DNA from: Rhodospirillales bacterium | Lineage (GTDB): Bacteria > Pseudomonadota > Alphaproteobacteria > Rhodospirillales > SHVQ01 | Direction: 5' to 3' | DNA: 64,000 nucleotides | NCBI GenBank assembly: GCA_009694195.1 | Contig: SHVQ01000008.1 | Location: 10,465 to 74,464, forward strand | Shown here: piece after piece, positions 43,351-61,240 of the stretch | How the letters are laid out: every line of letters starts with the position of its first letter | How positions within the stretch are numbered: the stretch's first letter is position 1 | Notes under the pieces: model-generated | Told to the model about the DNA's origin: nothing | The model's database searches: none | What the model saw: only the letters and a program-made list of their open reading frames with translations | Made by a program: the position numbers and the translations under genes

Positions 43351-44250
43351 ATGTGCGGCATCGTCGGCCTCTACCTGAAGAACAAGAAGCTCGAAAAACA
43401 CTTGGGCAAGCACCTGACGGCCATGCTGGTCGGGATGAGCGACCGCGGGCCGGACTCGGCAGGGATGGCCGTCTATCGGAACCCGGCACCCAAGGGCTCG
43501 GTCAAGCTTTCGCTCTTCCATCCGGACCCCACGTTCGCTTGGAAGAAGCTCGCATCCCAGGTGCGGAAGGCGTTCGGCGGCAAGGCCAAAGGCGAGGTGC
43601 GCGGGAGCCACTACGTGCTCGTCGCCAAGGGGTCGCCTGAGCGCCTCAGGAAATGGATTCCCGAGCACTTCCCGACCGTCCGCATCATGGGCATCGGCGA
43701 CATCATCGAGATTTATAAGGAGAAGGGCCGGCCCGAGCAGGTGGCCCAGCGCTTCCGGCTGCACGAGCTCACGGGCACCCACGCCATCGGCCACACGCGG
43801 ATGGCAACGGAGAGCGCGGTGACGACCGAGCACTCGCACCCCTTCTCCACCGGCCAGGACCTCTGCCTCGTCCACAACGGCTCGCTCTCCAACTACAATC
43901 GCCTCCGCCAGTGGCTGCAGCGCCATGGCATCCAGTTCCAGACCGACAACGACACGGAAGTGGCGGCCGGCTATTTCGCCTTTCGCCTGCAGCAAGGCGA
44001 CAGCCTGAAGGAGGCGTTGAAGGCCGGGCTCGTCGACCTCGACGGCTTCTTCACCTTCGCCGTCGGGACCCGCGACGGGTTCGCGGTGGTCCGCGACGGG
44101 ATCGCCTGCAAGCCCGCCGTGCTGGCGGAAAACGACGACTGGGTCGCGATGGCGTCCGAGTATCGATCGATCGCGCATCTGCCCGGCGCGGAGAAGGCGA
44201 AGATTTGGGAGCCCGCCCCCGCCACCATCTACACCTGGGGCAACGCTTAA
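43351..44250 (+). CDS. glxB: Class II amidotransferase (N-methylglutamate synthase subunit A-like)
   Basis: MCGIVG, RGPDSAG, GHTRMATES, HNGSLSN, TDNDTE. Confidence 0.88.
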   Translation: MCGIVGLYLKNKKLEKHLGKHLTAMLVGMSDRGPDSAGMAVYRNPAPKGSVKLSLFHPDPTFAWKKLASQVRKAFGGKAKGEVRGSHYVLVAKGSPERLRKWIPEHFPTVRIMGIGDIIEIYKEKGRPEQVAQRFRLHELTGTHAIGHTRMATESAVTTEHSHPFSTGQDLCLVHNGSLSNYNRLRQWLQRHGIQFQTDNDTEVAAGYFAFRLQQGDSLKEALKAGLVDLDGFFTFAVGTRDGFAVVRDGIACKPAVLAENDDWVAMASEYRSIAHLPGAEKAKIWEPAPATIYTWGNA

Positions 44251-44260
44251 AGGTCCAGCC

Positions 44261-44947
44261 ATGATCACCGTCGATTTGGAGACCGCGGGCGGCGTGCGCG
44301 CGCTGAATGACCGCCTGCACAAGCTGCCGCACGATACCAACGAAACCGCCTGGAAGGTTCTCAACCCGATGGGGGCGCACGCGGTCGCCGTCGGCGTGAA
44401 CGCGCCGATCCAGGTCGAGATCGACGGCCACGTCGGCTACTACTGCGGCGGCATGAACACGGACGCGACCATCACCGTCAACGGCCACGCCGGCCCCGGG
44501 CTGGGCGAGAACATCATGTCCGGCACGATCCGCGTGAAGGGAAACGCCTCCCAGTCCGCGGCCGCCACCGGGCGCGGCGGCCTCGTGGTGATCGAAGGGA
44601 GCGCGAGCTCGCGCTGCGGGATCGCCATGAAGGGCGTCGACATCGTGGTCGGCGGCGACGTCGGCCACATGAGCGCCTTCATGGCGCAGGCCGGGCATTT
44701 GGTCGTCTGCGGCGACGCGGGCTCGAGCTTGGGCGACTCGATTTATGAAGCGATCCTCTACGTGCGCGGCCAGGTCGAGAGCCTCGGCGCCGATTGCATC
44801 GAGAAAGAGATGACTCCCGAGCACCTGAAGACGGTCGAAAGCCTGCTCAAGCGGGCGGGCGTGAAGGCCGATCCGAAGGCGTTCAAGCGCTACGGCTCGG
44901 CCCGCAAGCTCTACAATTTCAAGATCGACAACGCGGCGAATTACTAG
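44261..44947 (+). CDS. glxC: GXGXG (GltB/FwdC) domain protein (N-methylglutamate synthase subunit B-like)
   Basis: GYYCGGMN, RCGIAMKG, FKRYGSARKLYNF. Confidence 0.88.
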   Translation: MITVDLETAGGVRALNDRLHKLPHDTNETAWKVLNPMGAHAVAVGVNAPIQVEIDGHVGYYCGGMNTDATITVNGHAGPGLGENIMSGTIRVKGNASQSAAATGRGGLVVIEGSASSRCGIAMKGVDIVVGGDVGHMSAFMAQAGHLVVCGDAGSSLGDSIYEAILYVRGQVESLGADCIEKEMTPEHLKTVESLLKRAGVKADPKAFKRYGSARKLYNFKIDNAANY

Positions 44948-44988
44948 ATGACAGCGCGCTGGCCGGAACACGTTTCCACGGACATCGA

Positions 44989-45499
44989 AGCCCCTCTCGC
45001 GCGCGAGCGGGAGAGGGTGGCGAACCCGCGGGATTGGCCTGCGGGGAGCCGGGTGAGGGCTATTCCGTCAGCCCCGACGAGGGCGACTCAGGACGCGCAA
45101 GATGGTCCCTTGCACCGCATCAATGTTGGTCAGAATGTCGGTGTTCCAAAAGCGCAGCACCTTCCAGCCATGGCGCTTGAGCCAAGCGGTTCGGCGTTGG
45201 TCGTCGGTGCATCCGGAGTGCTGACCGCCGTCGGCCTCGATCACAAGGCAGTATTCAATACAGGCAAAATCGACCACGAACGGCCCCAGCGGATGCTGAC
45301 GGCGAAATTTGTATCCTCGCAGCCGCTGTCCACGCAGCGCCGACCACAGCCGGCGTTCGGCATCTGTCATTGTCGCCCGCAAGCGGAGTGCCGTGCGGTT
45401 GGGCATCGTCGGCAGGATAGCACGAGTGTAAATCACCCTCACCTTCCCGGCCCTGAAGGGCCGGGTCCCTCCCTCTCCCGCTCGCGCGGGAGAGGGGCT
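44989..45499. mobile_element. Putative REP-flanked DUF559 cassette
   Basis: 29-bp inverted ends (44989-45017 and 45471-45499, one mismatch) enclose an antisense DUF559 gene between glxC and glxD. Confidence 0.6.
45068..45406 (-). CDS. DUF559 (Vsr-like PD-(D/E)XK) endonuclease
   Basis: MTDAERRLWSALR...GYKFRRQHPLGPFVVDFAC...LVIEADGGQH...DQRRTAWL...GWKVLRFWN. Confidence 0.9.
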   Translation of the reverse strand: MPNRTALRLRATMTDAERRLWSALRGQRLRGYKFRRQHPLGPFVVDFACIEYCLVIEADGGQHSGCTDDQRRTAWLKRHGWKVLRFWNTDILTNIDAVQGTILRVLSRPRRG

Positions 45500-45518
45500 G
45501 TTCCGGAGTGAAAGCACA

Positions 45519-46841
45519 ATGTCGGTCGATCCGCGCAATCTCAGGGACTCGTACACGTACTCGCCCGATGTCATCGGCGAGATCCAGCGGGCGGCAAAGG
45601 AAGGGATCTATTCGATCCGCGGCGCCGGGGCCAAACGCAGGCTGCCGACGTTCGACGATCTCGTGTTTCTGGGCGCCTCGGTCTCCCGCTATCCGCTCGA
45701 AGGCTACCGCGAAAAGTGCGCGACCGATGTCGTGCTCGGCACGCGCTTTGCGAAGAAACCCGTCCACCTGAAAATCCCGATCACCATCGCCGGCATGAGC
45801 TTCGGCGCGCTCGGGGTGAACGCGAAGCAGGCGCTCGGCATGGCCGCCTCGCAAATGGGAACGTCCACCACGACGGGCGACGGCGGCATGGTCGAGGAGG
45901 AACGGCAGGCCTCGAAGACCCTCGTCTACCAGATCCTGCCCTCCCGCTACGGCGTCAATCCGGATCACTTGAGACGCTCGGACGCGGTCGAGGTCGTCAT
46001 CGGCCAGGGAGCCAAGCCCGGCGGCGGCGGCATGCTGCTCGGCCAGAAGATCACCAAGCGGGTCGCCGGCATGCGCACGCTGCCGGAGGGCATCGACCAG
46101 CGGAGCGCGTCCCGCCACCCCGACTGGACGGGGCCCGACGATCTGGAGATCAAGATCAATGAGCTCCGCGAGCTCACGGATTGGGAGAAGCCGATCTACG
46201 TCAAGGTCGGCGCGACGCGCACGTATTACGACACCGCGCTTGCCGTGAAAGCGGGCGCCGACGTGGTCGTGGTCGACGGCATGCAGGGCGGCACGGGTGC
46301 CACCCAGGACGTGTTCATCGAGAACGTCGGAATCCCGACGCTTGCGGCGGTTCGCTTGGCCGTAAAGGCACTGCAGGAGCTGGACATGCACCGGAAGGTG
46401 CAACTGATCGTGTCCGGCGGCATCCGCTCAGGCGCGGACGTGGCGAAAGCAATTGCCATGGGGGCGGACGCCGTTTCCATCGGCATGGCATCGCTCATCG
46501 CGCTCAATTGCAACGCGCCGCTCTATCTCGAAGACTACGAGAAGCTCGGGACGGCTCCCGGCTTCTGCCACCATTGCAACACCGGGCGCTGTCCGGTCGG
46601 CGTGACGACCCAGGACCCGGAGCTGGAAAAGCGCCTGGATCCCGAGCAGGGTGCCCGGCGCGTCCGCAATTATCTCTCCACGCTGGTGATGGAAGCGCAG
46701 ACCCTGGCCCGCGCCTGCGGCAAGTCGCACATACACAATTTGGAGCCCGAGGACATGGTGGCGCTCACCATCGAGGCCGCCGCGATGGCGGGAATTCCGC
46801 TCGCCGGCACCGACTGGATTCCCGGAAGGAATCCGCTGTAG
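45519..46841 (+). CDS. glxD: FMN-binding glutamate synthase-family subunit (N-methylglutamate synthase subunit C-like)
   Basis: AGMSFGAL, GQGAKPGGGG, SRHPDW, DGMQGGTG, CHHCNTGRCPVGVTTQ. Confidence 0.9.
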   Translation: MSVDPRNLRDSYTYSPDVIGEIQRAAKEGIYSIRGAGAKRRLPTFDDLVFLGASVSRYPLEGYREKCATDVVLGTRFAKKPVHLKIPITIAGMSFGALGVNAKQALGMAASQMGTSTTTGDGGMVEEERQASKTLVYQILPSRYGVNPDHLRRSDAVEVVIGQGAKPGGGGMLLGQKITKRVAGMRTLPEGIDQRSASRHPDWTGPDDLEIKINELRELTDWEKPIYVKVGATRTYYDTALAVKAGADVVVVDGMQGGTGATQDVFIENVGIPTLAAVRLAVKALQELDMHRKVQLIVSGGIRSGADVAKAIAMGADAVSIGMASLIALNCNAPLYLEDYEKLGTAPGFCHHCNTGRCPVGVTTQDPELEKRLDPEQGARRVRNYLSTLVMEAQTLARACGKSHIHNLEPEDMVALTIEAAAMAGIPLAGTDWIPGRNPL

Positions 46842-46876
46842 GCTTTGCCGCCACGTAAAAACAGGGGGGATCAGGG

Positions 46877-48184
46877 ATGAGCACGGACCTGGAAAAAATC
46901 GCCAAAAGCCGGAAGATCAAATACTTCCTGATAAGCTTCGTCGACATGTTCGGCGTGCTCCGGGCGAAGCTCGTGCCCGCCCGCGCGATCGGCATGATGC
47001 AGCGGGACGGCGCCGCGTTCGCAGGCTTCGCCACCTGGCTGGACATGACGCCCGCACACCCCGATATGTTCGCCAAGCCCGATCCCGATAGCCTCATCGT
47101 GCTCCCGTGGAAGCCCGAGGTCGCCTGGCTCGCGGCCGACCTCTGGATGGACGGCAAGGAAGTGGAGGCCTCGCCCCGCGTCCTCTTGAAGCGCCAGCTC
47201 GAGCGGGCGGCGAAGCTCGGCTACCGGATGAAGACGGGCGTCGAGTGCGAATACTTCCTCATCAACCCGGACGGCACCGCGATCTCGGATGCGCGCGACG
47301 TGCAGCCGAAGCCCTGTTACGACCAGACGGCCTTGATGCGCCGCTACGATGTGATCTCGGAAATCTGCGACGCCATGAACCTGCTCGGCTGGTGCCCTTA
47401 TCAGAACGACCACGAGGACGCCAACGGCCAGTTCGAAATGAACTGGGACTATGACGACGCGCTCCGGACCGCCGACAAGCACGCGTTCTTCAAGTACATG
47501 ACCCGCACGATCGCCGAGATGCACGGGCTCCGCGCGACGTTCATGCCGAAGCCTTTCCTCGGCCTCACGGGCAACGGCTGCCATGCGCACGTTTCGGTCT
47601 GGGATTCCGCGGGGAAGAAAAACCTGTTCCTCGATGCGAAGGGCGAGCTCGGCCTTTCCAAGCTCGCCTACAGCTTCCTCGGCGGCATCATCCACAACGC
47701 GGAATCGCTCTGCGCGTTCTTCAATCCCACGATCAACAGCTTCAAGCGGATCAACGCCCCGGTGACGGCTTCCGGCGCCACGTGGTCGCCCAACACGATC
47801 ACTTACAGCGGCAACAACCGCACGCACATGATCCGCATCCCGGAGGCCGGCCGGTTCGAGCTCCGGCTGATGGACGGCGCGGTCAACCCCTACCTCGGGC
47901 AGGCGGGCGTGCTCGCCGCCGGCTTGGACGGCGTCAAAAACAAGCGCGATCCGGGGAAGCGCCTGGACATCGACATGTACGCCCTCGGGCACACGGTGAA
48001 GGGCGCGAAGAAGCTGCCCTTGAACATGCTCGATTCCGTTCGCTTCGCCGACCAGAGCAAGGTGCTCCGCGACGCCTTCGGGAACGCGTTCATGGACAGC
48101 TACGTGAAGCTAAAAATGCGCGAGTGGGCCAGCTTCAACAGCGCGCTCACGCCGTGGGAGCGCGACAACACGTTGGATTGCTGA
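46877..48184 (+). CDS. glnT: GlnT-type glutamine synthetase family; probable gamma-glutamylmethylamide synthetase (GmaS)
   Basis: LRAKLVPA, FAGFATWLDM, YQNDHEDANGQFEMNW, TFMPKPF..LTGNGCH, GNNRTHMIR. Confidence 0.9.
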   Translation: MSTDLEKIAKSRKIKYFLISFVDMFGVLRAKLVPARAIGMMQRDGAAFAGFATWLDMTPAHPDMFAKPDPDSLIVLPWKPEVAWLAADLWMDGKEVEASPRVLLKRQLERAAKLGYRMKTGVECEYFLINPDGTAISDARDVQPKPCYDQTALMRRYDVISEICDAMNLLGWCPYQNDHEDANGQFEMNWDYDDALRTADKHAFFKYMTRTIAEMHGLRATFMPKPFLGLTGNGCHAHVSVWDSAGKKNLFLDAKGELGLSKLAYSFLGGIIHNAESLCAFFNPTINSFKRINAPVTASGATWSPNTITYSGNNRTHMIRIPEAGRFELRLMDGAVNPYLGQAGVLAAGLDGVKNKRDPGKRLDIDMYALGHTVKGAKKLPLNMLDSVRFADQSKVLRDAFGNAFMDSYVKLKMREWASFNSALTPWERDNTLDC

Positions 48185-48198
48185 AGGGCGGGAATCCA

Positions 48199-48366
48199 GC
48201 CCCTCACCCTTCCCTCTCCCCCAGATGGGGGAGAGGGTTGCTCAGGGTCTGCGGGGAATCCCCGCAAGTGTCCCCTTGGGTTGGCGCGGCGTCAGCCGCG
48301 CCTTACCCGCCTGCGGGGCCGAAGCCCCTGCGGCGCGGCGAAGGCCCGGAGCTGGGTGAGGGGGTG
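48199..48366. repeat. CCCTCTCCC-type REP-like element with two nested inserts
   Basis: Same backbone as 50975..51072 and 61144..61240, plus 33-bp and 39-bp inserts. Confidence 0.8.
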
Positions 48367-48383
48367 ACGATGGGCGTCGGCCG

Positions 48384-49634
48384 TTACCGCTTCAGATAAT
48401 CGTAGGCGGTCATCGCGATCGTGCGGAACACGCGATGCACGTCCTCGACTGCGACCGCCTCGTCGGGGCCGCCCAGGTTGTGGGCGTTCGGCCCGCAAAG
48501 GATCGCCGGCATTCCCGCCCGGCGGTAGAACCGGCAATCGGAATAGCCGAGCCGGTAGTTGAGGTGGACGTCCTCGCCCGATGCCTCGGCGGCGTTCTTC
48601 AGCGCCAGCCGCACGATCGGATGATCGGGATCGGTCCACGCCGGCTCGAACGACGACATGATCGTGAAGGAGACCCCGGAAACGCTCGTGAGCCGGCCCG
48701 CGATCCGCTTCTGCATTTCGGCGACCGAGAGCCCGGCCGGAATGCGGACGTCGAGGCGGGCCAGCGCCCGGCCGGCGACCAGGTTGAAGGCCTCGCCGCC
48801 TTCGATGACGCCGACGTTCACGGTGACGGCGGTGAGATTGCGGATTTCACCCGAGTCCGCGCCCGCGCGCGCGCCCGCCGCATCGACGGCCGCGCGAACC
48901 TGCGCCGGCACCTCCGGAGCGGGCCCCTCCAACGTTTTGATCGCGGTGATCGCCCGGATCAACGCATCGATCGCGCTGACGCCCTTGTGCGGGTGCGCGC
49001 CGTGACTTGCGCGTCCTTCCGCCTGGAGCTCGATCCAGAGATAGCCCTTCTCGCCGAAGCGGAGCACGGTCGGCGAGCCCGCATCGGCGTTGAGCACGGC
49101 ATCGCCGCGGGCCTCCGGCACGTTCGCCACCAGATAGCCGGTGCCGAAGCTGCCCCCGGTTTCCTCGTCGCCGACGAGGGAGAGCACGATCCGGCCGCCG
49201 AGCTGCCCCCGCGCCGCGGCGAGGGCCCGCACCGCGAGGATCTCGCAGGCGACCCCGGATTTCATGTCGGCGACGCCGCGCCCCAACAGGCGGCCGTCCT
49301 TCAAGGTGCCTTCGAGGGGCGGCACCGTCCACGTCCCTTCGTCGCCGACGGGGAACGTGTCGAGATGGCCGTTGAACACGAGGGTCGGGCCGGGCGCGCC
49401 CAAGTCGATGATACAGTTGAGATTGATGCAGTCGGGCTTGGGCTCGATGCGCGCGACCCGGAGCCCCTCGATGCCGTCCAGCTGCTTGAGACAAAAGGCG
49501 GCGGCGGCAACCGTGTTCCCGGGGGGATTGATCGACGGAATCCGGAGGAGAGCCTGAACGAGCGGGATCAAATTCTTTTCGTCGGCCGCGAGCCGTTTCT
49601 TGAATGCAGACCGTGCATCGCTCTCCGCCGACAC
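48384..49634 (-). CDS. M20 metallopeptidase (ArgE/DapE family)
   Basis: FNGHLDTFP, GRGVADMKSG, GDEETGG, GRASHGA, DEAV. GTG start preceded by GAGG. Confidence 0.88.
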   Translation of the reverse strand: MSAESDARSAFKKRLAADEKNLIPLVQALLRIPSINPPGNTVAAAAFCLKQLDGIEGLRVARIEPKPDCINLNCIIDLGAPGPTLVFNGHLDTFPVGDEGTWTVPPLEGTLKDGRLLGRGVADMKSGVACEILAVRALAAARGQLGGRIVLSLVGDEETGGSFGTGYLVANVPEARGDAVLNADAGSPTVLRFGEKGYLWIELQAEGRASHGAHPHKGVSAIDALIRAITAIKTLEGPAPEVPAQVRAAVDAAGARAGADSGEIRNLTAVTVNVGVIEGGEAFNLVAGRALARLDVRIPAGLSVAEMQKRIAGRLTSVSGVSFTIMSSFEPAWTDPDHPIVRLALKNAAEASGEDVHLNYRLGYSDCRFYRRAGMPAILCGPNAHNLGGPDEAVAVEDVHRVFRTIAMTAYDYLKR

Positions 49635-49642
49635 CGTCCACC

Positions 49643-50908
49643 TCAGGCAGTCGCCGGACGCAGGCGTCCGGCGCGGGTCATCTGGACGAGCATCGCGATG
49701 ATCGTGAGGTTGGTGATGTTGAACGCGATCCCGATGGCAAATGCATATGTGTAGCCCCCCGTGAGGTCGAAGGCGTAGCCGCCGACCCAGCCGCCGAGCG
49801 CCATGCCGAGGCCGGCGAACAGGTCGATCTGCGCGTAGCGGCGGCCGACCTCGTGGACCGGCATGTATTCGCGGGCGATGGCGATGTTGCTGGGTCCGAT
49901 GCCGCCCCACCCGAGCCCGAACAGAACGGCGACGACGTAGAAGGTCCAGAGACTATCGATCGCCATGAACAGGCAAAGACCGATCACCTGCGCGGCCGAA
50001 AACATGAGCAGCGTCGGCAGCCCGCCGAACCGCTCGACGACGGGCCCGAAGACGAGCAGGCGCGTGACCAGGCTCGCGGCCAGCATCAGCGAGAGGACTT
50101 CGGCGGCCCTGACGGCCGGATACCCGATGTCCGTCGCGTAGGCCACCACATGAGCGTGCGGGATCGCCATGGCGACGCAACACCCGATGACCCCGAGGGA
50201 GAGCGCGACCTGCAGGACCGGCGTCGAGAGGACGGGCCCGGTCGCGGCCTCGACCTGGCGGCGGGGGGTTTCGCCTGAGCGGACGTACGTTTCCCCGCGA
50301 CCCGCCTCAGCCGCGGGCGTCCTCCGCATGAGGATGAAGCTCAGCGGCACCATGGTCGCAAGCGCGAAGACGCCGTACCAGAAGAACGTCTCCCGCCACC
50401 CGATGGTGTCGTTGAGGTAGCGGAAGATCGGCGGCAAAATGATTCCGCCCAGGCTCTGGCCGCTTGAAACGATGCCGATGGCAAGACCGCGGCGGCGGTC
50501 GAACCAATGCGTCACGTTGGCGCTGAGCGGCGCATAGAGGCTGGCGACCCCGAGCAAGCCCATCATCACGCCGAACGCGACATAAAACTCCCATTGGCTC
50601 GTGGCCGTGCTGGCGAAGATCGCGCCGGAGCCGATCATCACCGCACCGATCAAGGACGGCCCGAACATCCGGCGCGAACGGTCCATCCAGGCGCCCATCG
50701 CGATCGCGCCGAACCCGCCGCCGATGAAACTGAGCGCATAGGCCGTCGAGGGAACTGTCCGCGGCCAGTCGAAGTCCTGGGAAATGCTCTTCAGCATCAC
50801 GACGAGAGCGAACTGACCGCCGAGCCCGATCAAGAGAAGCGCGACCGAAGCGAAGAGCACGGCAAACCGGTAGTTGCGGTCGATGCTGTCGCGGACGGAT
50901 CGCAACAC
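49643..50908 (-). CDS. MFS transporter (OFA/MCT-like)
   Basis: WFDRRRGLAIGIVSSG, GWRETF, GGYAFDLTGGY. Confidence 0.88.
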   Translation of the reverse strand: MLRSVRDSIDRNYRFAVLFASVALLLIGLGGQFALVVMLKSISQDFDWPRTVPSTAYALSFIGGGFGAIAMGAWMDRSRRMFGPSLIGAVMIGSGAIFASTATSQWEFYVAFGVMMGLLGVASLYAPLSANVTHWFDRRRGLAIGIVSSGQSLGGIILPPIFRYLNDTIGWRETFFWYGVFALATMVPLSFILMRRTPAAEAGRGETYVRSGETPRRQVEAATGPVLSTPVLQVALSLGVIGCCVAMAIPHAHVVAYATDIGYPAVRAAEVLSLMLAASLVTRLLVFGPVVERFGGLPTLLMFSAAQVIGLCLFMAIDSLWTFYVVAVLFGLGWGGIGPSNIAIAREYMPVHEVGRRYAQIDLFAGLGMALGGWVGGYAFDLTGGYTYAFAIGIAFNITNLTIIAMLVQMTRAGRLRPATA

Positions 50909-50974
50909 TGAAGGCCTCCCGGGTCGATCCTGCGAGAGTACCCTCGAACGCTTCGCGCCGTCAGCTTATTGAAT

Positions 50975-51072
50975 CACCCCCTCACCCAGCTTCGGGTAGA
51001 GCGCGGCTGACGCCGCGCCAACCCTACACAACCCTCTCCCCCGTATAGGGGGAGAGGGAAGGGTGAGGGGGC
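50975..51072. repeat. CCCTCTCCC-type REP-like element
   Basis: Outer CCCCTCACCC/GGGTGAGGGG arms enclosing the CCCTCTCCCCC..GGGGGAGAGGG hairpin. Confidence 0.82.
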
Positions 51073-51077
51073 GTACA

Positions 51078-54000
51078 CTATTCCGCCGGTTGCGGATGCT
51101 TCTGCGCGGCCCCGGCGGGAAGCGGCTTCGGCTTGCGGCCGCGGATGACCGTGTAGACGCTCGGAATGACGAAGAGCGTAAAGAAGGTTCCGACCAGCAG
51201 GCCGCCGACGATCACCCAGCCGATCTGCTTCCGGCTCTCCGCTCCGGCGCCCGTCGAGAGCGCCAGCGGGATGGCGCCGAGGACCATCGCGCCCGTGGTC
51301 ATCAGGATCGGGCGAAGCCGGAGGACGGTCGCCTCGATGACGGCCTCGACCGGCGACTTCCCGGCCTCCCGCATCTGGTTCGAGAACTCGACGATGAGAA
51401 TGCCGTGCTTGGTGATCAGGCCGATGAGCGTGACGAGGCCGACCTTGCTGTAGACATTGAGCGTGCCGCCCGTGAGATGGAGCAGCAGAAGCGCTCCCGC
51501 CATCGAGAGCGGCACCGTCAGCATGATGATGAAGGGGTCGATGAAGCTTTCGAACTGGGCGGCGAGCACCAGGTAGATGAACGCGAGCGCGAGCAGGAAC
51601 ATGACGAAGATGTCGGCGCTCGACGTCTTGAACTCCCGGGAGGGGCCCGCGTAGTCCGTGCGCGCCCACGCCGGCAGCACCTCCTTGGCGGCGGCCTCGA
51701 CGGCCTGAAGGGCGTCGCCGAGGGCGTAGCCCGGCGCCACGTTGGCCGTGAGGGTGACGGAGCGAAGCTGGTTGAAGTGATTGAGCTCCCGCGGCGCCAC
51801 GGTCTCCGTCACCCGGATCAGGTTGGCGAGCGGAATCATTTCGCCCCCTGGGGCGCGCACATAGATCTTGTGAAGGTCGTCGGGGTTGCGCCGGTCGACG
51901 TCGCCGATCTGGACCACCACGTCGTATTGCTTGCCCTCGCGCTTGAAGCGGGTGACCTCGCGGCCGCCCAACATCGTCTCAAGCGCCCGGCCGAGGGTCT
52001 CGACCTCGAGCCCGAGCGTCGCCATCTTGTCGCGGTCGACGGCCACCTTGAGCTGCGGCGTATTCAGCTTGAGGTCGGTTTCGATGTTGAGGAGCGTCGG
52101 GTTCCCGTCGAGCTTGGCGATCAGCCGATCAGCCATCTGCTGAAGCTCGAGATAGGGGTGCGACGTGAGCACCACGAACTGCAGCGGCTTGTCGCGGACG
52201 CTCTGGCCGAGCGGCGGCGGGTTGACGGGGAAGGCCAGGATGCCCGGGATCTTGAACATCTCCGGCGCGATCGAAGCGGCGATCTCCTGCTGCGTCCGCG
52301 TGCGCTCGCCCCACGGCTTGACGCGGACGAAGGAAATCCCCTGCGCCACGGTCGGGAACCCGGAGACGACGAAGTATTTGTTCACCTCCGGCACGGCGGC
52401 GAAGATCTTTTCCAGTTCGCGCGCGTAGCTGTCCGTATAGGTGATCGTCGAGCCTTCCGGCGCGATGAAGATGCCGACGATGACGCCCTGGTCCTCGAAG
52501 GGCGCGAGCTCCGACTTCAAGAGCTTGAAGAAATAGACGCTGCTGCCGGCGACCGCGAGGCCGAGGAGGATGACGAGGACGCGCGCCCGCAACGCGCGGG
52601 TGAGCACGAACCGGTAGCCCTGGGTCAACCGGTCGAGACCCCAGCCGACGGCGCGGGAGAGCGGGTTCGGGCGCGCGTGATGGCGGAGCATCTTCGAGCA
52701 CATCATCGGCGAGAGGGAGAGCGCGACGAATCCGGAGACCAGCACCGCACCGGCGAGCGTCCAGGCGAATTCGGCGAACAGCCGCCCGGTGCCGCCGGTC
52801 ATGAACCCGATCGGCGCATAGACGGCAGCCAGCGTCAGCGTCATCGCGACCACCGCGAAGCCGATCTCGCGGCTACCGCGCTTGGCGGCCTCCATCGGCG
52901 GCATCCCGGCCTCCACGTGCCGGTGAATGTTCTCCAGCATCACGATCGCGTCGTCGACGACGAGCCCGATCGCGAGCACGAGAGCCAGGAGCGTCAGCGT
53001 GTTGATCGTGAACCCGCAGACGTACATCAGCGCGAACGCGCCGATCAGGGAGACCGGGATGGTGACGAGCGGGATCATCGTCGCCCGCACCGAGCGCAGG
53101 AAGATGAAGATGATCAGCACGACCAGCCCGGTCGCCTCGAAGATCGTGCGGTTCACGTTCTTGATCGATTCCTCGATGAAGACGGACTTGTCGTAAGCGA
53201 CCTCGGAATTCATTCCCTGCGGCAGGCCCTCGATGATGCGCGGCAGCTCCTCGCGGATGGCGCGCGAGACCTCGAGCGGGTTCGCCGTCGCCTGCTTGAC
53301 GATGCCGAGCGCGATCGCGTTGCGCCCCCGGTAGCGGGCGATCCGGCGCTCGTCGCGGGCGGCGAGCTCGGCGTGACCGACGTCCGAGAGCCGCACCAGG
53401 TAGCCTTTGTCATCCTTGAGGATGAGGCGGTTGAAATCCTCGGGCGTGCGCATATCGGTTTCCGAGAGCACCGTGAACTCGCGGCGCGCACTTTCGATGC
53501 GCCCCGACGGCACCTCGACGTTCTGGCGCCGCAACGCCGCTTCGATGTCCTGCGGCGTGAGGGCGAACGCCGCGAGCTTCGAGGGGTCGAGCCAGATCCG
53601 CATGGAGTAGCGGCGCTCGCCGAAGATGCGCACTTCGGCGACGCCCGAGAGCGTCTGCAACTGGTCCTTCACGTAGCGGTCGGCGTAGTCGGAGATCTCG
53701 AGCGGGCTGTGGCGGTCGCTGAAGAAGGCGAGGTAGAGGATGGGCTGGGCGTCCGCCTCCACTTTCTGGATCACCGGCTCGTCGATCTCGTCGGGGAGCT
53801 TGCCGCGCACCCGGCTCACCCGGTCGCGCACGTCGGCGGCGGCGCCGTCGGGAGCGCGCTTCAGCTTGAAGACGACGGCGATCTGGCTGCTCTCCTGGCG
53901 GCTGACGGAGCTCATGATCTCCACGCCTTCGATGCCGGCGAGGGATTCTTCGATCACCTGGGTCACCTGGGTCTCGACGATCTCGGCGCTGGCGCCCCGG

Positions 54001-61143: not shown

Positions 61144-61240
61144 CCCCCTCACCCTCCCCTCTCCCCCGCTAAACGGGGGAGAGGGTTGAGAAGGGTTGAC
61201 GCGGCGCCAGCCGCGGTTACCCGAAGCTGGGTGAGGGGGC
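61144..61240. repeat. CCCTCTCCC-type REP-like element
   Basis: Near-identical to the reverse complement of 50975..51072. Confidence 0.82.

Follow-up and report, generated by a model that had tools for sequence, protein, structure and literature searches.

BoxC repeats, also named PIT and TMECO, have the consensus CCCTCNCCC N3-6 GGGNGAGGG N3 GGGNGAGGG and have been known since the 1990s as sequences tied to genome instability, with origin and spread unexplained (Holder et al., 2015, PMC4666352). E. coli K-12 holds 23 copies, with inverted pairs at five sites, and 3610 copies were counted in 262 proteobacterial genomes (PMC4666352). The motifs stall polymerase in vitro; according to the same source no transposase or integrase remnants were ever found near them, and the word 'endonuclease' is absent from its available text (PMC4666352). 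In a second kind of system, the REP/REPIN-RAYT 'REPtrons', a single enzyme gene lies between inverted copies of a genome-dispersed hairpin repeat (PMC3116915, PMC3337134). Here, a locus that recalls both was analyzed. It is a 511-bp cassette at positions 44989-45499 of a 64,000-nucleotide stretch of a Rhodospirillales genome (contig SHVQ01000008.1; the whole stretch is referred to as the window), in which a single antisense DUF559 gene is placed between inverted arms.

DUF559 is a very common domain, most members of which have, to our knowledge, no assigned role. One published survey of predicted inversion-type inverted repeats lists 'DUF559 domain-containing protein' as enriched among the genes that carry them, with an odds ratio of 14.3 (PMC9881135). 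In the comparisons below, the pairing of gene and arms across proteobacteria points to DUF559 as the enzyme behind BoxC-type repeats. The best explanation of the cassette, to which an even chance is given, would be a RAYT-independent, REPtron-like nuclease-repeat system, with the cassette as the master copy, the one that bears the gene, of a BoxC-type repeat family. The element would then be small, selfish or commensal, and composed of a single Vsr-like DUF559 gene with an inverted cis-acting arm on either side. BoxC repeats themselves are already named, and the link to DUF559 is the new part; no description of DUF559 paired with BoxC-type arms was found in the full-text literature, subscription journals and supplements lying outside the scope of that search.

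The cassette and the pairing of nuclease gene and arms

The DUF559 gene (113 aa plus stop) occupies 45068..45409 on the minus strand. On either side the arms run from an outer hairpin through a second hairpin to an inner GGGTGAGGG block, and the terminal parts (44989-45020 and 45468-45499; 32 nt each) were 94% complementary in a repeat search. In the left arm, outer hairpin A is formed by CCCTCTCGCGC and GCGGGAGAGGG with one mismatch (stem 44992-45002/45007-45017, 10 of 11 pairs), the second hairpin (45025..45045) takes the position of BoxC loop 2 with an 8-bp stem in both minimum-energy and centroid folds, and the inner purine block B (GGGTGAGGG, 45051..45059) stands 8 nt from the DUF559 stop codon and forms an inverted pair with 45431-45443. 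In the right arm, the inner pyrimidine block B' (CCCTCACC, 45436..45443), also recovered by the repeat search, lies 26 nt upstream of the DUF559 start codon and is followed by the second hairpin (CCCGGCCC tgaa GGGCCGGG, 45446..45465) and by outer hairpin A at 45471-45496 with a perfect 11-bp stem (45471-45481/45486-45496). Folded as single strands, the arms gave -24.4 and -25.7 kcal/mol (z = -3.4 for the left and -5.1 for the right arm, against 200 shuffles) with two hairpins each, ViennaRNA folding covering hairpins only and no triplexes. An earlier note, made from the letters of the window, had described the cassette ends as inverted 29-mers that are each also a hairpin, and the inner motifs GGGTGAGGG and CCCTCACC as pointing at a lone minus-strand DUF559 gene; the ends do match at 28 of 29 positions, each with its own hairpin, and the coordinates of the inner motifs were confirmed. 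A search of Rfam (E up to 0.1) was without a match in 44000-52000 and in four homologue loci, and a scan for sigma-70-like promoters returned no site in 44800-45700.

The same arrangement was looked for in 80 homologue loci from Alpha-, Beta- and Gammaproteobacteria and a few other phyla (proteins 50-69% identical), of which 3 had flanks too short to score and 77 were scored. With arms counted at an inverted-repeat score of at least 14 within 250-nt flanks, 67 of the 77 DUF559 loci carried them, against none of 140 other genes in the same loci (including none of 72 genes of at most 600 nt); random placements scored 17 or more in 1 of 504 cases. The enrichment of inverted hairpins at DUF559 flanks, on which the earlier note had made its proposal depend, was thus found. 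Almost always the arms follow one plan, an outer hairpin and then a gene-adjacent purine block. DUF559 homologues of 57-59% identity were also seen in genomes labelled Bdellovibrionales, Candidatus Peribacteria and Desulfuromusa (L033, L051 and L082), with inverted-repeat scores of 8 and 11 at L033 and L051 (no clear arms) and a modest 15 at L082.

Paralogues within one genome gave a finer comparison. Arms were present at 19 of the 20 DUF559 paralogues of three multi-copy genomes, and these 20 fell into at least five arm types that differ in their 9-mers; most paralogues within a genome differ in arm type, and some genomes have two copies of one type. The comparison shows that each nuclease paralogue carries its own arm type. 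The window genome (G000) itself holds a second DUF559 cassette between carA and carB (C1:161609-162112; gene at L225:2068-2511), whose inverted, near-perfect arms of about 64 nt are of another 9-mer type (CCCTCCCCC/GGGGGAGGG/GGGAGGGGG). A 73-aa open reading frame (ORF) without Pfam match adjoins this cassette. In the CCCTCCCCC type, the block after GGGGGAGGG is GGGAGGGGG in the C1 cassette, at C1:120390, on C20, in L036 and in L077, and GGGGAGAGGG in L055 and L057; a purine-motif triplex would require the second G-block to mirror the first, and the comparison is informative for this type only.

The repeats had been called REP-like in the earlier note, a label that had to be dropped, as they are not classical REPs. 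REP palindromes are GTAG-headed. By their block structure the window arms are a variant of the named BoxC/PIT/TMECO triplex motifs and not a strict member, as the three blocks stand in order but the first two 9-mers are 8 nt apart and the second loop is 31 nt long and bears a hairpin. Gene-less copies on contig C12 have a 3-nt second loop, and the arms of beta- and gammaproteobacterial homologues fit the BoxC consensus.

The predicted protein starts at the ATG common to homologues. Its match to PF04480 scored 126.8 bits against a cut-off of 20.6 (E = 4e-37; profile positions 6-108 of 109), and a sub-threshold PF18741 was the only other Pfam domain. By sequence it matched PDB 3hrl_A (E = 2.3e-27). 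The AlphaFold2 model (predicted local distance difference test, pLDDT, 84.9) matched, in Foldseek, 3hrl (E = 1e-7), the catalytic domain of I-Bth0305I (3r3p; E = 1e-4, TM 0.66/0.75) and Vsr (1vsr; E = 0.014). Across 34 sequences E58, D60 and H64 never vary, and D47 and D70 are conserved in at least 90%; for Vsr, the residues D51/H64/H69/D97 are named in PMC3239194. The ratio of nonsynonymous to synonymous substitution rates (dN/dS) was 0.07-0.21 among syntenic orthologues, and the protein is under purifying selection. It looks like a working nuclease, not like a classical Vsr.

Insertion, inheritance and dispersed repeats

One complete Hyphobacterium chromosome holds two cassettes with unrelated flanks that are 89.6% identical over exactly 463 bp, the match reaching about 7 nt beyond one outer hairpin and 2 nt beyond the other. 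Across the genus, one of these sites was filled in 3 genomes, empty in 4 and occupied by a 125-nt remnant in 1. In the empty form two convergent genes stand about 8 nt apart; no repeat block is present there, and no target duplication was visible in the filled/empty comparison, in which a very short one could be hidden because the flanks are 75-82% identical. The filled site of G462 (L040) has an extra 587-nt segment between left flank and cassette that is absent from filled and empty congeners. The second Hyphobacterium site (L048) was rejected as a source of a clean empty form, its intergenic region being too variable among species.

The acnD|prpF junction was filled in 10 loci, from Paraburkholderia, Chitinivorax, Vogesella, a Neisseriaceae genome, Arenimonas and a gammaproteobacterial genome. 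Fourteen empty Burkholderiales junctions had spacers of -28 to 97 nt and no BoxC 9-mer, and two further junctions contained other inserts. Mapping filled and empty junctions onto the flanking-gene tree takes 5 changes of state, at least 4 of them forced by well-supported branches; the DUF559 tree (82 rows, 108 columns) was too weakly resolved to tell single from multiple origin of these copies. In Vogesella and the Neisseriaceae genome (L063 and L069) the acnD|prpF spacer is 792-795 nt, with about 350 extra bases between the left BoxC arm and DUF559. Homing into a pre-existing inverted BoxC pair was rejected at the two sites with readable empty forms (Hyphobacterium and acnD|prpF), because neither empty form has a BoxC block.

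In the window, the spacer between the glxC-like and glxD-like genes is 571 nt. It ranged from -8 to 294 nt (median about 16) in all 74 metagenome loci where the two genes share a strand, was at most 65 nt in 72 of the 74, and is 3 nt in G033, the nearest genome with this junction. None of 80 fetched metagenome glxC-glxD loci had a DUF559 gene. The view of the earlier note that the cassette interrupts glxC-glxD is borne out by this difference in spacer length. The glxC-like gene (44261..44947, plus strand; GXGXG domain, Pfam PF01493, E = 2.7e-11) ends 41 nt before the cassette, and the glxD-like gene (45519..46841, plus strand; Glu_synthase FMN domain, Pfam PF01645, E = 4.7e-96) starts 19 nt after it. 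A class-II amidotransferase gene precedes the former and a glutamine-synthetase-like gene follows the latter, a layout that we take to be that of the methylamine (N-methylglutamate) pathway. No flanking gene is common to the window and any of the 80 closest DUF559 loci.

Taken across the sites, the comparisons show gene and arms as a discrete unit that has inserted into operon junctions without visible target duplication. They also show that the unit is usually inherited vertically. Sites occupied in more than one genus or order include acnD|prpF, sucB-thioesterase|lpdA (Sphingomonadales) and those of the Alcanivorax and Parvibaculum groups, and a homologue occurred in 30 of 72,556 plasmid records, 25 of the 30 being rated non-mobilizable.

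One gene-deleted unit was seen in the window genome. Between two other genes of the window genome (G000), C31:29577-29805 is a 229-bp derivative of the window cassette with the gene interior deleted: its left end is 86% identical over 101 nt including the region of the gene's stop, its right end 94% over 69 nt, and 21 of 21 nt of the 5' codons are intact. E. coli ycjD was rejected as a clean model, as all that is left is the hairpin on the stop side and, farther away, a TMECO copy, with a duplicated 3' gene remnant between them. In K-12 (NC_000913.3, 1351200-1351420; L173) this remnant, about 30 nt that repeat the 3' end of ycjD, lies between the stop-codon BoxC hairpin and TMECO copy no. 9, and looks like what is left of a second DUF559 copy.

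Gene-less members of the repeat family are found in the window itself. The element at 48200..48364 consists of CCCCTCACCC, hairpin A, a long structured spacer and GGGTGAGGGGG, and has a near-copy on contig C6; the element at 50977..51071 is in opposite orientation and folds with an outer 11-bp stem around two hairpins (-38.6 kcal/mol, z = -8.6). A third element of the family, at 61144..61239, folds in the same way (-39.3 kcal/mol, z = -7.6) and has copies on C8, C14, C36 and C47. These are the elements placed at 48199, 50975 and 61144 by the earlier note, and they share the cassette motifs as it had said. In the 2.5-Mb genome 22 matches to the hairpin pattern were counted and none to the reversed pattern, so that the pattern is not due to chance. 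Dispersed copies frequently come as doublets spaced by about 100-120 nt, their purine blocks outward.

Gene-less inverted doublets of the CCCTCCCCC type were seen in the window genome at C1:120349-120412, C20:9695 and C35:23752-23812; in these, the hairpins are separated by 15-18 nt of AT-rich spacer, with the purine blocks on the outer side, the reverse of the cassette order. The right arm also stands out in metagenomes. Many metagenome contigs from other places stop matching at 45436 and 45497, which delimits a 62-nt repeat unit (45436-45497), and in the two best of four freshwater metagenome runs the summed depth over this unit was 430-1600, against about 10 for neighbouring sequence. Depth excess and shared match ends together indicate that the 62-nt unit is very abundant in the freshwater community.

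Hairpins were counted by arm type on the forward strand of five genomes, a count of 2 being the cassette's own arms. Type T occurred 8 times in G000, 69 in G084, 99 in G324, 24 in G340 and 2 in G339; the counts in the same order were 7, 0, 2, 5 and 0 for type C, 0, 150, 49, 0 and 0 for type II, and 0, 35, 4, 14 and 0 for type III. An arm type stood at three or more copies where a matching-arm DUF559 exists, and at 0 copies in 7 of 7 genome/type cells in which none was seen. The counts show that gene-less repeats of a given type occur, as far as detected, in genomes with a matching-arm nuclease, with the exceptions given below. In G084, type-III hairpins (CCTCCCCC gcca GGGGGAGGTGG) form inverted pairs that recur in tandem about every 198 bp, at C1:1855713-1856563 and 3146440-3147472. 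Across 301 Pseudomonadota genomes, a strong DUF559 match was present in 46 of 53 with at least 10 hairpins and in 36 of 248 with fewer (odds ratio 39); as relatives are not independent, p-values of this co-occurrence overstate it.

Weighing the explanations

In the proposed system, the DUF559 nuclease, probably a dimer like I-Bth0305I, would recognise the polypurine/polypyrimidine 9-mers of its arms in folded form (hairpin or triplex) and nick or cut at the folded arms. Host replication or repair would then copy the element without target duplication, and gene-less singlets and doublets with the same 9-mers would be mobilised or maintained in trans. A broader claim, held with rather less than even confidence, is that DUF559 nucleases may be the missing creators and spreaders of BoxC/PIT/TMECO repeats, that is, a second, RAYT-independent class of intragenomic replicator in which each paralogue has co-evolved with its own polypurine 9-mer 'address' and reads DNA structure, hairpin or triplex, in place of plain duplex sequence. 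Such a class would be long-lived and widespread in Proteobacteria, and would probably reach past them. If the pairing is true, it would give DUF559 its first general function, BoxC repeats an origin, and the REPIN/RAYT type of vertically inherited replicator a second enzyme class. For annotation, it matters that cassettes sit inside central-metabolism operons (glxC|glxD and carA|carB here, acnD|prpF and sucB|lpdA elsewhere) and that their arms are often misread as spurious ORF extensions.

Several observations weigh against the nuclease-repeat system. The link between protein and repeat is comparative throughout, and the co-occurrence statistics ignore phylogeny. Of the repeat-rich genomes, 7 of 53 had no strong DUF559 match, so that the correlation proposed in the earlier note holds for most of them and not for all, and 9 genomes with a strong DUF559 match had no hairpin of the searched pattern. 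G324 has 7 type-III hairpins (both strands) and none among its 7 detected DUF559 genes has type-III arms, while G339 has the cassette and no solo copy of its arm type. Arms were absent within 250 nt at 10 of the 77 scored loci (L018, L027, L033, L034, L051, L053, L063, L069, L073 and L088); at L063 and L069 they exist farther out. Within a genome, no two of the 20 copies from the three multi-copy genomes exceed 71% DNA identity; the copies are hence old, so that movement of the gene itself must be rare. Moreover, the gene-less elements carry their GGGTGAGGG/CCCTCACCC blocks at the outer ends and the cassette at its inner, gene-facing ends, and with B blocks outward in doublets and inward in the cassette the relation is not one of simple deletion. 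The suggestion of the earlier note that the gene-less elements are non-autonomous copies of the cassette suits the C31 derivative, a true deletion derivative; the elements themselves, by their block orientation, are not simple internal-deletion copies. Finally, a search for an empty allele at the window's own site was negative among 40 relatives, the metagenome loci and four public runs. The relatives all belong to other families (the best, G033, being 75-78% identical), the best metagenome glxC locus had 73% protein identity, contigs from the four runs span the filled form only, and the single long joint in these contigs (44722 to 45774) does not coincide with the cassette ends.

Two other explanations, both judged improbable and to the same degree, take the nuclease as the active part and the repeats as secondary. 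In one, a homing-endonuclease-like selfish gene would cut cassette-free alleles and be copied by recombinational repair, the arms being accessory (insulators or recombination handles) and the dispersed repeats a separate matter. The nearest solved fold outside the protein's own family is the catalytic domain of I-Bth0305I, a dimer that cuts a pseudo-palindromic site (PMC3239194), and the separate fillings of acnD|prpF, four to five at the least, the clean empty sites and the absence of a visible target duplication would all suit homing. It would, however, have to do with 113 aa and no extra Pfam DNA-binding domain, where I-Bth0305I needs its N-terminal NUMOD and helix-turn-helix (HTH) regions (PMC3239194); it does not account for two copies in one genome at unrelated sites, and it leaves unexplained both the near-universal inverted triplex-type arms and the match in type between arms and dispersed repeats. 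In the other, DUF559 would be a host enzyme of repair or DNA structure (Vsr-type mismatch repair, or hairpin or triplex removal) that is bracketed by repeats incidentally, as terminators, insulators or a pile-up in an intergenic haven. Purifying selection and long vertical inheritance at fixed loci agree with this, as do the polymerase block by BoxC motifs in vitro (PMC4666352) and the functional link of the Caulobacter DUF559 protein VsrA to a cytosine methyltransferase (PMC12907096). A C5 cytosine methyltransferase (PF00145) was found, however, in none of five genomes, three of them with 6-8 detected DUF559 copies each, by a search that was positive in 9 of 14 known genomes as a control. Its absence argues against mismatch repair after 5-methylcytosine deamination for these copies and makes a classical Vsr role unlikely. 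Nor would a host enzyme be expected to move with its arms as one sharply bounded unit, to have arm types that co-vary with the paralogue, or to be flanked in a way that other genes in the same loci never are.

In a third explanation the cassette would be a passenger. An unrelated transposase (of an insertion sequence family or a RAYT) would act in trans on the arms as ends of a non-autonomous element, with DUF559 as cargo, a possibility rated lower still than the two above. The terminal inverted repeats do resemble those of miniature inverted-repeat transposable elements (MITEs), and a Y1_Tnp gene is present in 4 of 5 repeat-rich genomes. BoxC-type arms, however, were found at none of the five Y1_Tnp loci examined in these genomes; two of the five have long inverted repeats in their flanks (scores 33 and 26) without a BoxC 9-mer, which we read as classical REP palindromes. 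PF01797 (Y1/RAYT) had no match in the window genome (73% complete) and none in G277, which has 308 hairpins. A RAYT as mobiliser is therefore unlikely, since G277 lacks Y1_Tnp and the Y1_Tnp genes that exist flank other repeats, and the earlier note was right to describe an element without a RAYT, as far as a 73%-complete genome and the related repeat-rich ones go. A passenger would also hardly be DUF559 every time across three proteobacterial classes, or have arm types that track its paralogues, and the lack of a visible target duplication speaks against it too. The nuclease-repeat system is preferred over all three.

Comparison with known systems

Of the systems defined by their ends, MITEs and elements moved by DDE transposases share terminal inverted repeats with the cassette; the target-site duplication that goes with them was not seen in the Hyphobacterium comparison. 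Vsr and Caulobacter VsrA belong to the same superfamily and fold, and VsrA has a DUF559 domain (PDB 1vsr; PMC12907096). The fold match to Vsr is nonetheless weak, the methyltransferase partner is missing from the five genomes searched, and Vsr genes are not described with flanking repeats.

Closer in fold is I-Bth0305I, an EDxHD homing endonuclease (PDB 3r3p) with a Vsr-like catalytic fold, conserved acidic and histidine residues, a selfish-gene lifestyle and insertion without duplication (PMC3239194). It resides in a phage group I intron, has the N-terminal DNA-binding regions mentioned above and, in the account given there, no flanking repeats (PMC3239194), whereas the window protein is a bare 113-aa domain, intergenic and between inverted arms. 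An extra DNA-binding region and an intron, intein or conserved target, by which a homing endonuclease is recognized, were not found, and the recurrent acnD|prpF site is suggestive only.

The arms themselves find their nearest match in BoxC/PIT/TMECO, with which they share the block order (C-block, loop, G-block, loop, second G-block, with 9-mers of the CCCTCNCCC and GGGNGAGGG kind), the intergenic position, frequent inverted pairs, conserved stems and variable loops (PMC4666352). They differ in the second loop, which has 31 nt and a hairpin in the window against 3 nt in BoxC, and in the first, which has 8 nt between the 9-mers. BoxC is reported, in the text of that paper, with no mobility-related gene nearby (PMC4666352), and here DUF559 adjoins.

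In organisation the cassette comes nearest to the REPtrons, from which it is set apart by its parts. The enzyme here is a putative PD-(D/E)XK Vsr-like nuclease (PF04480) and that of REPtrons a Y1 HUH transposase (PF01797); the repeats here are polypurine/polypyrimidine triplex-type motifs with three 9-mer blocks and not REP palindromes; and action of RAYTs on their repeats has been demonstrated (PMC3116915, PMC3337134), whereas the tie of DUF559 to its repeats is drawn here from sequence comparison. Beyond the layout of one enzyme gene between inverted repeat copies, the likeness extends to repeats that are dispersed as singlets and inverted doublets, to the coexistence of several gene-repeat types in one genome, and to a gene that is mostly single-copy per type, chromosomal and vertically inherited, with no target duplication seen (PMC3116915, PMC3337134).

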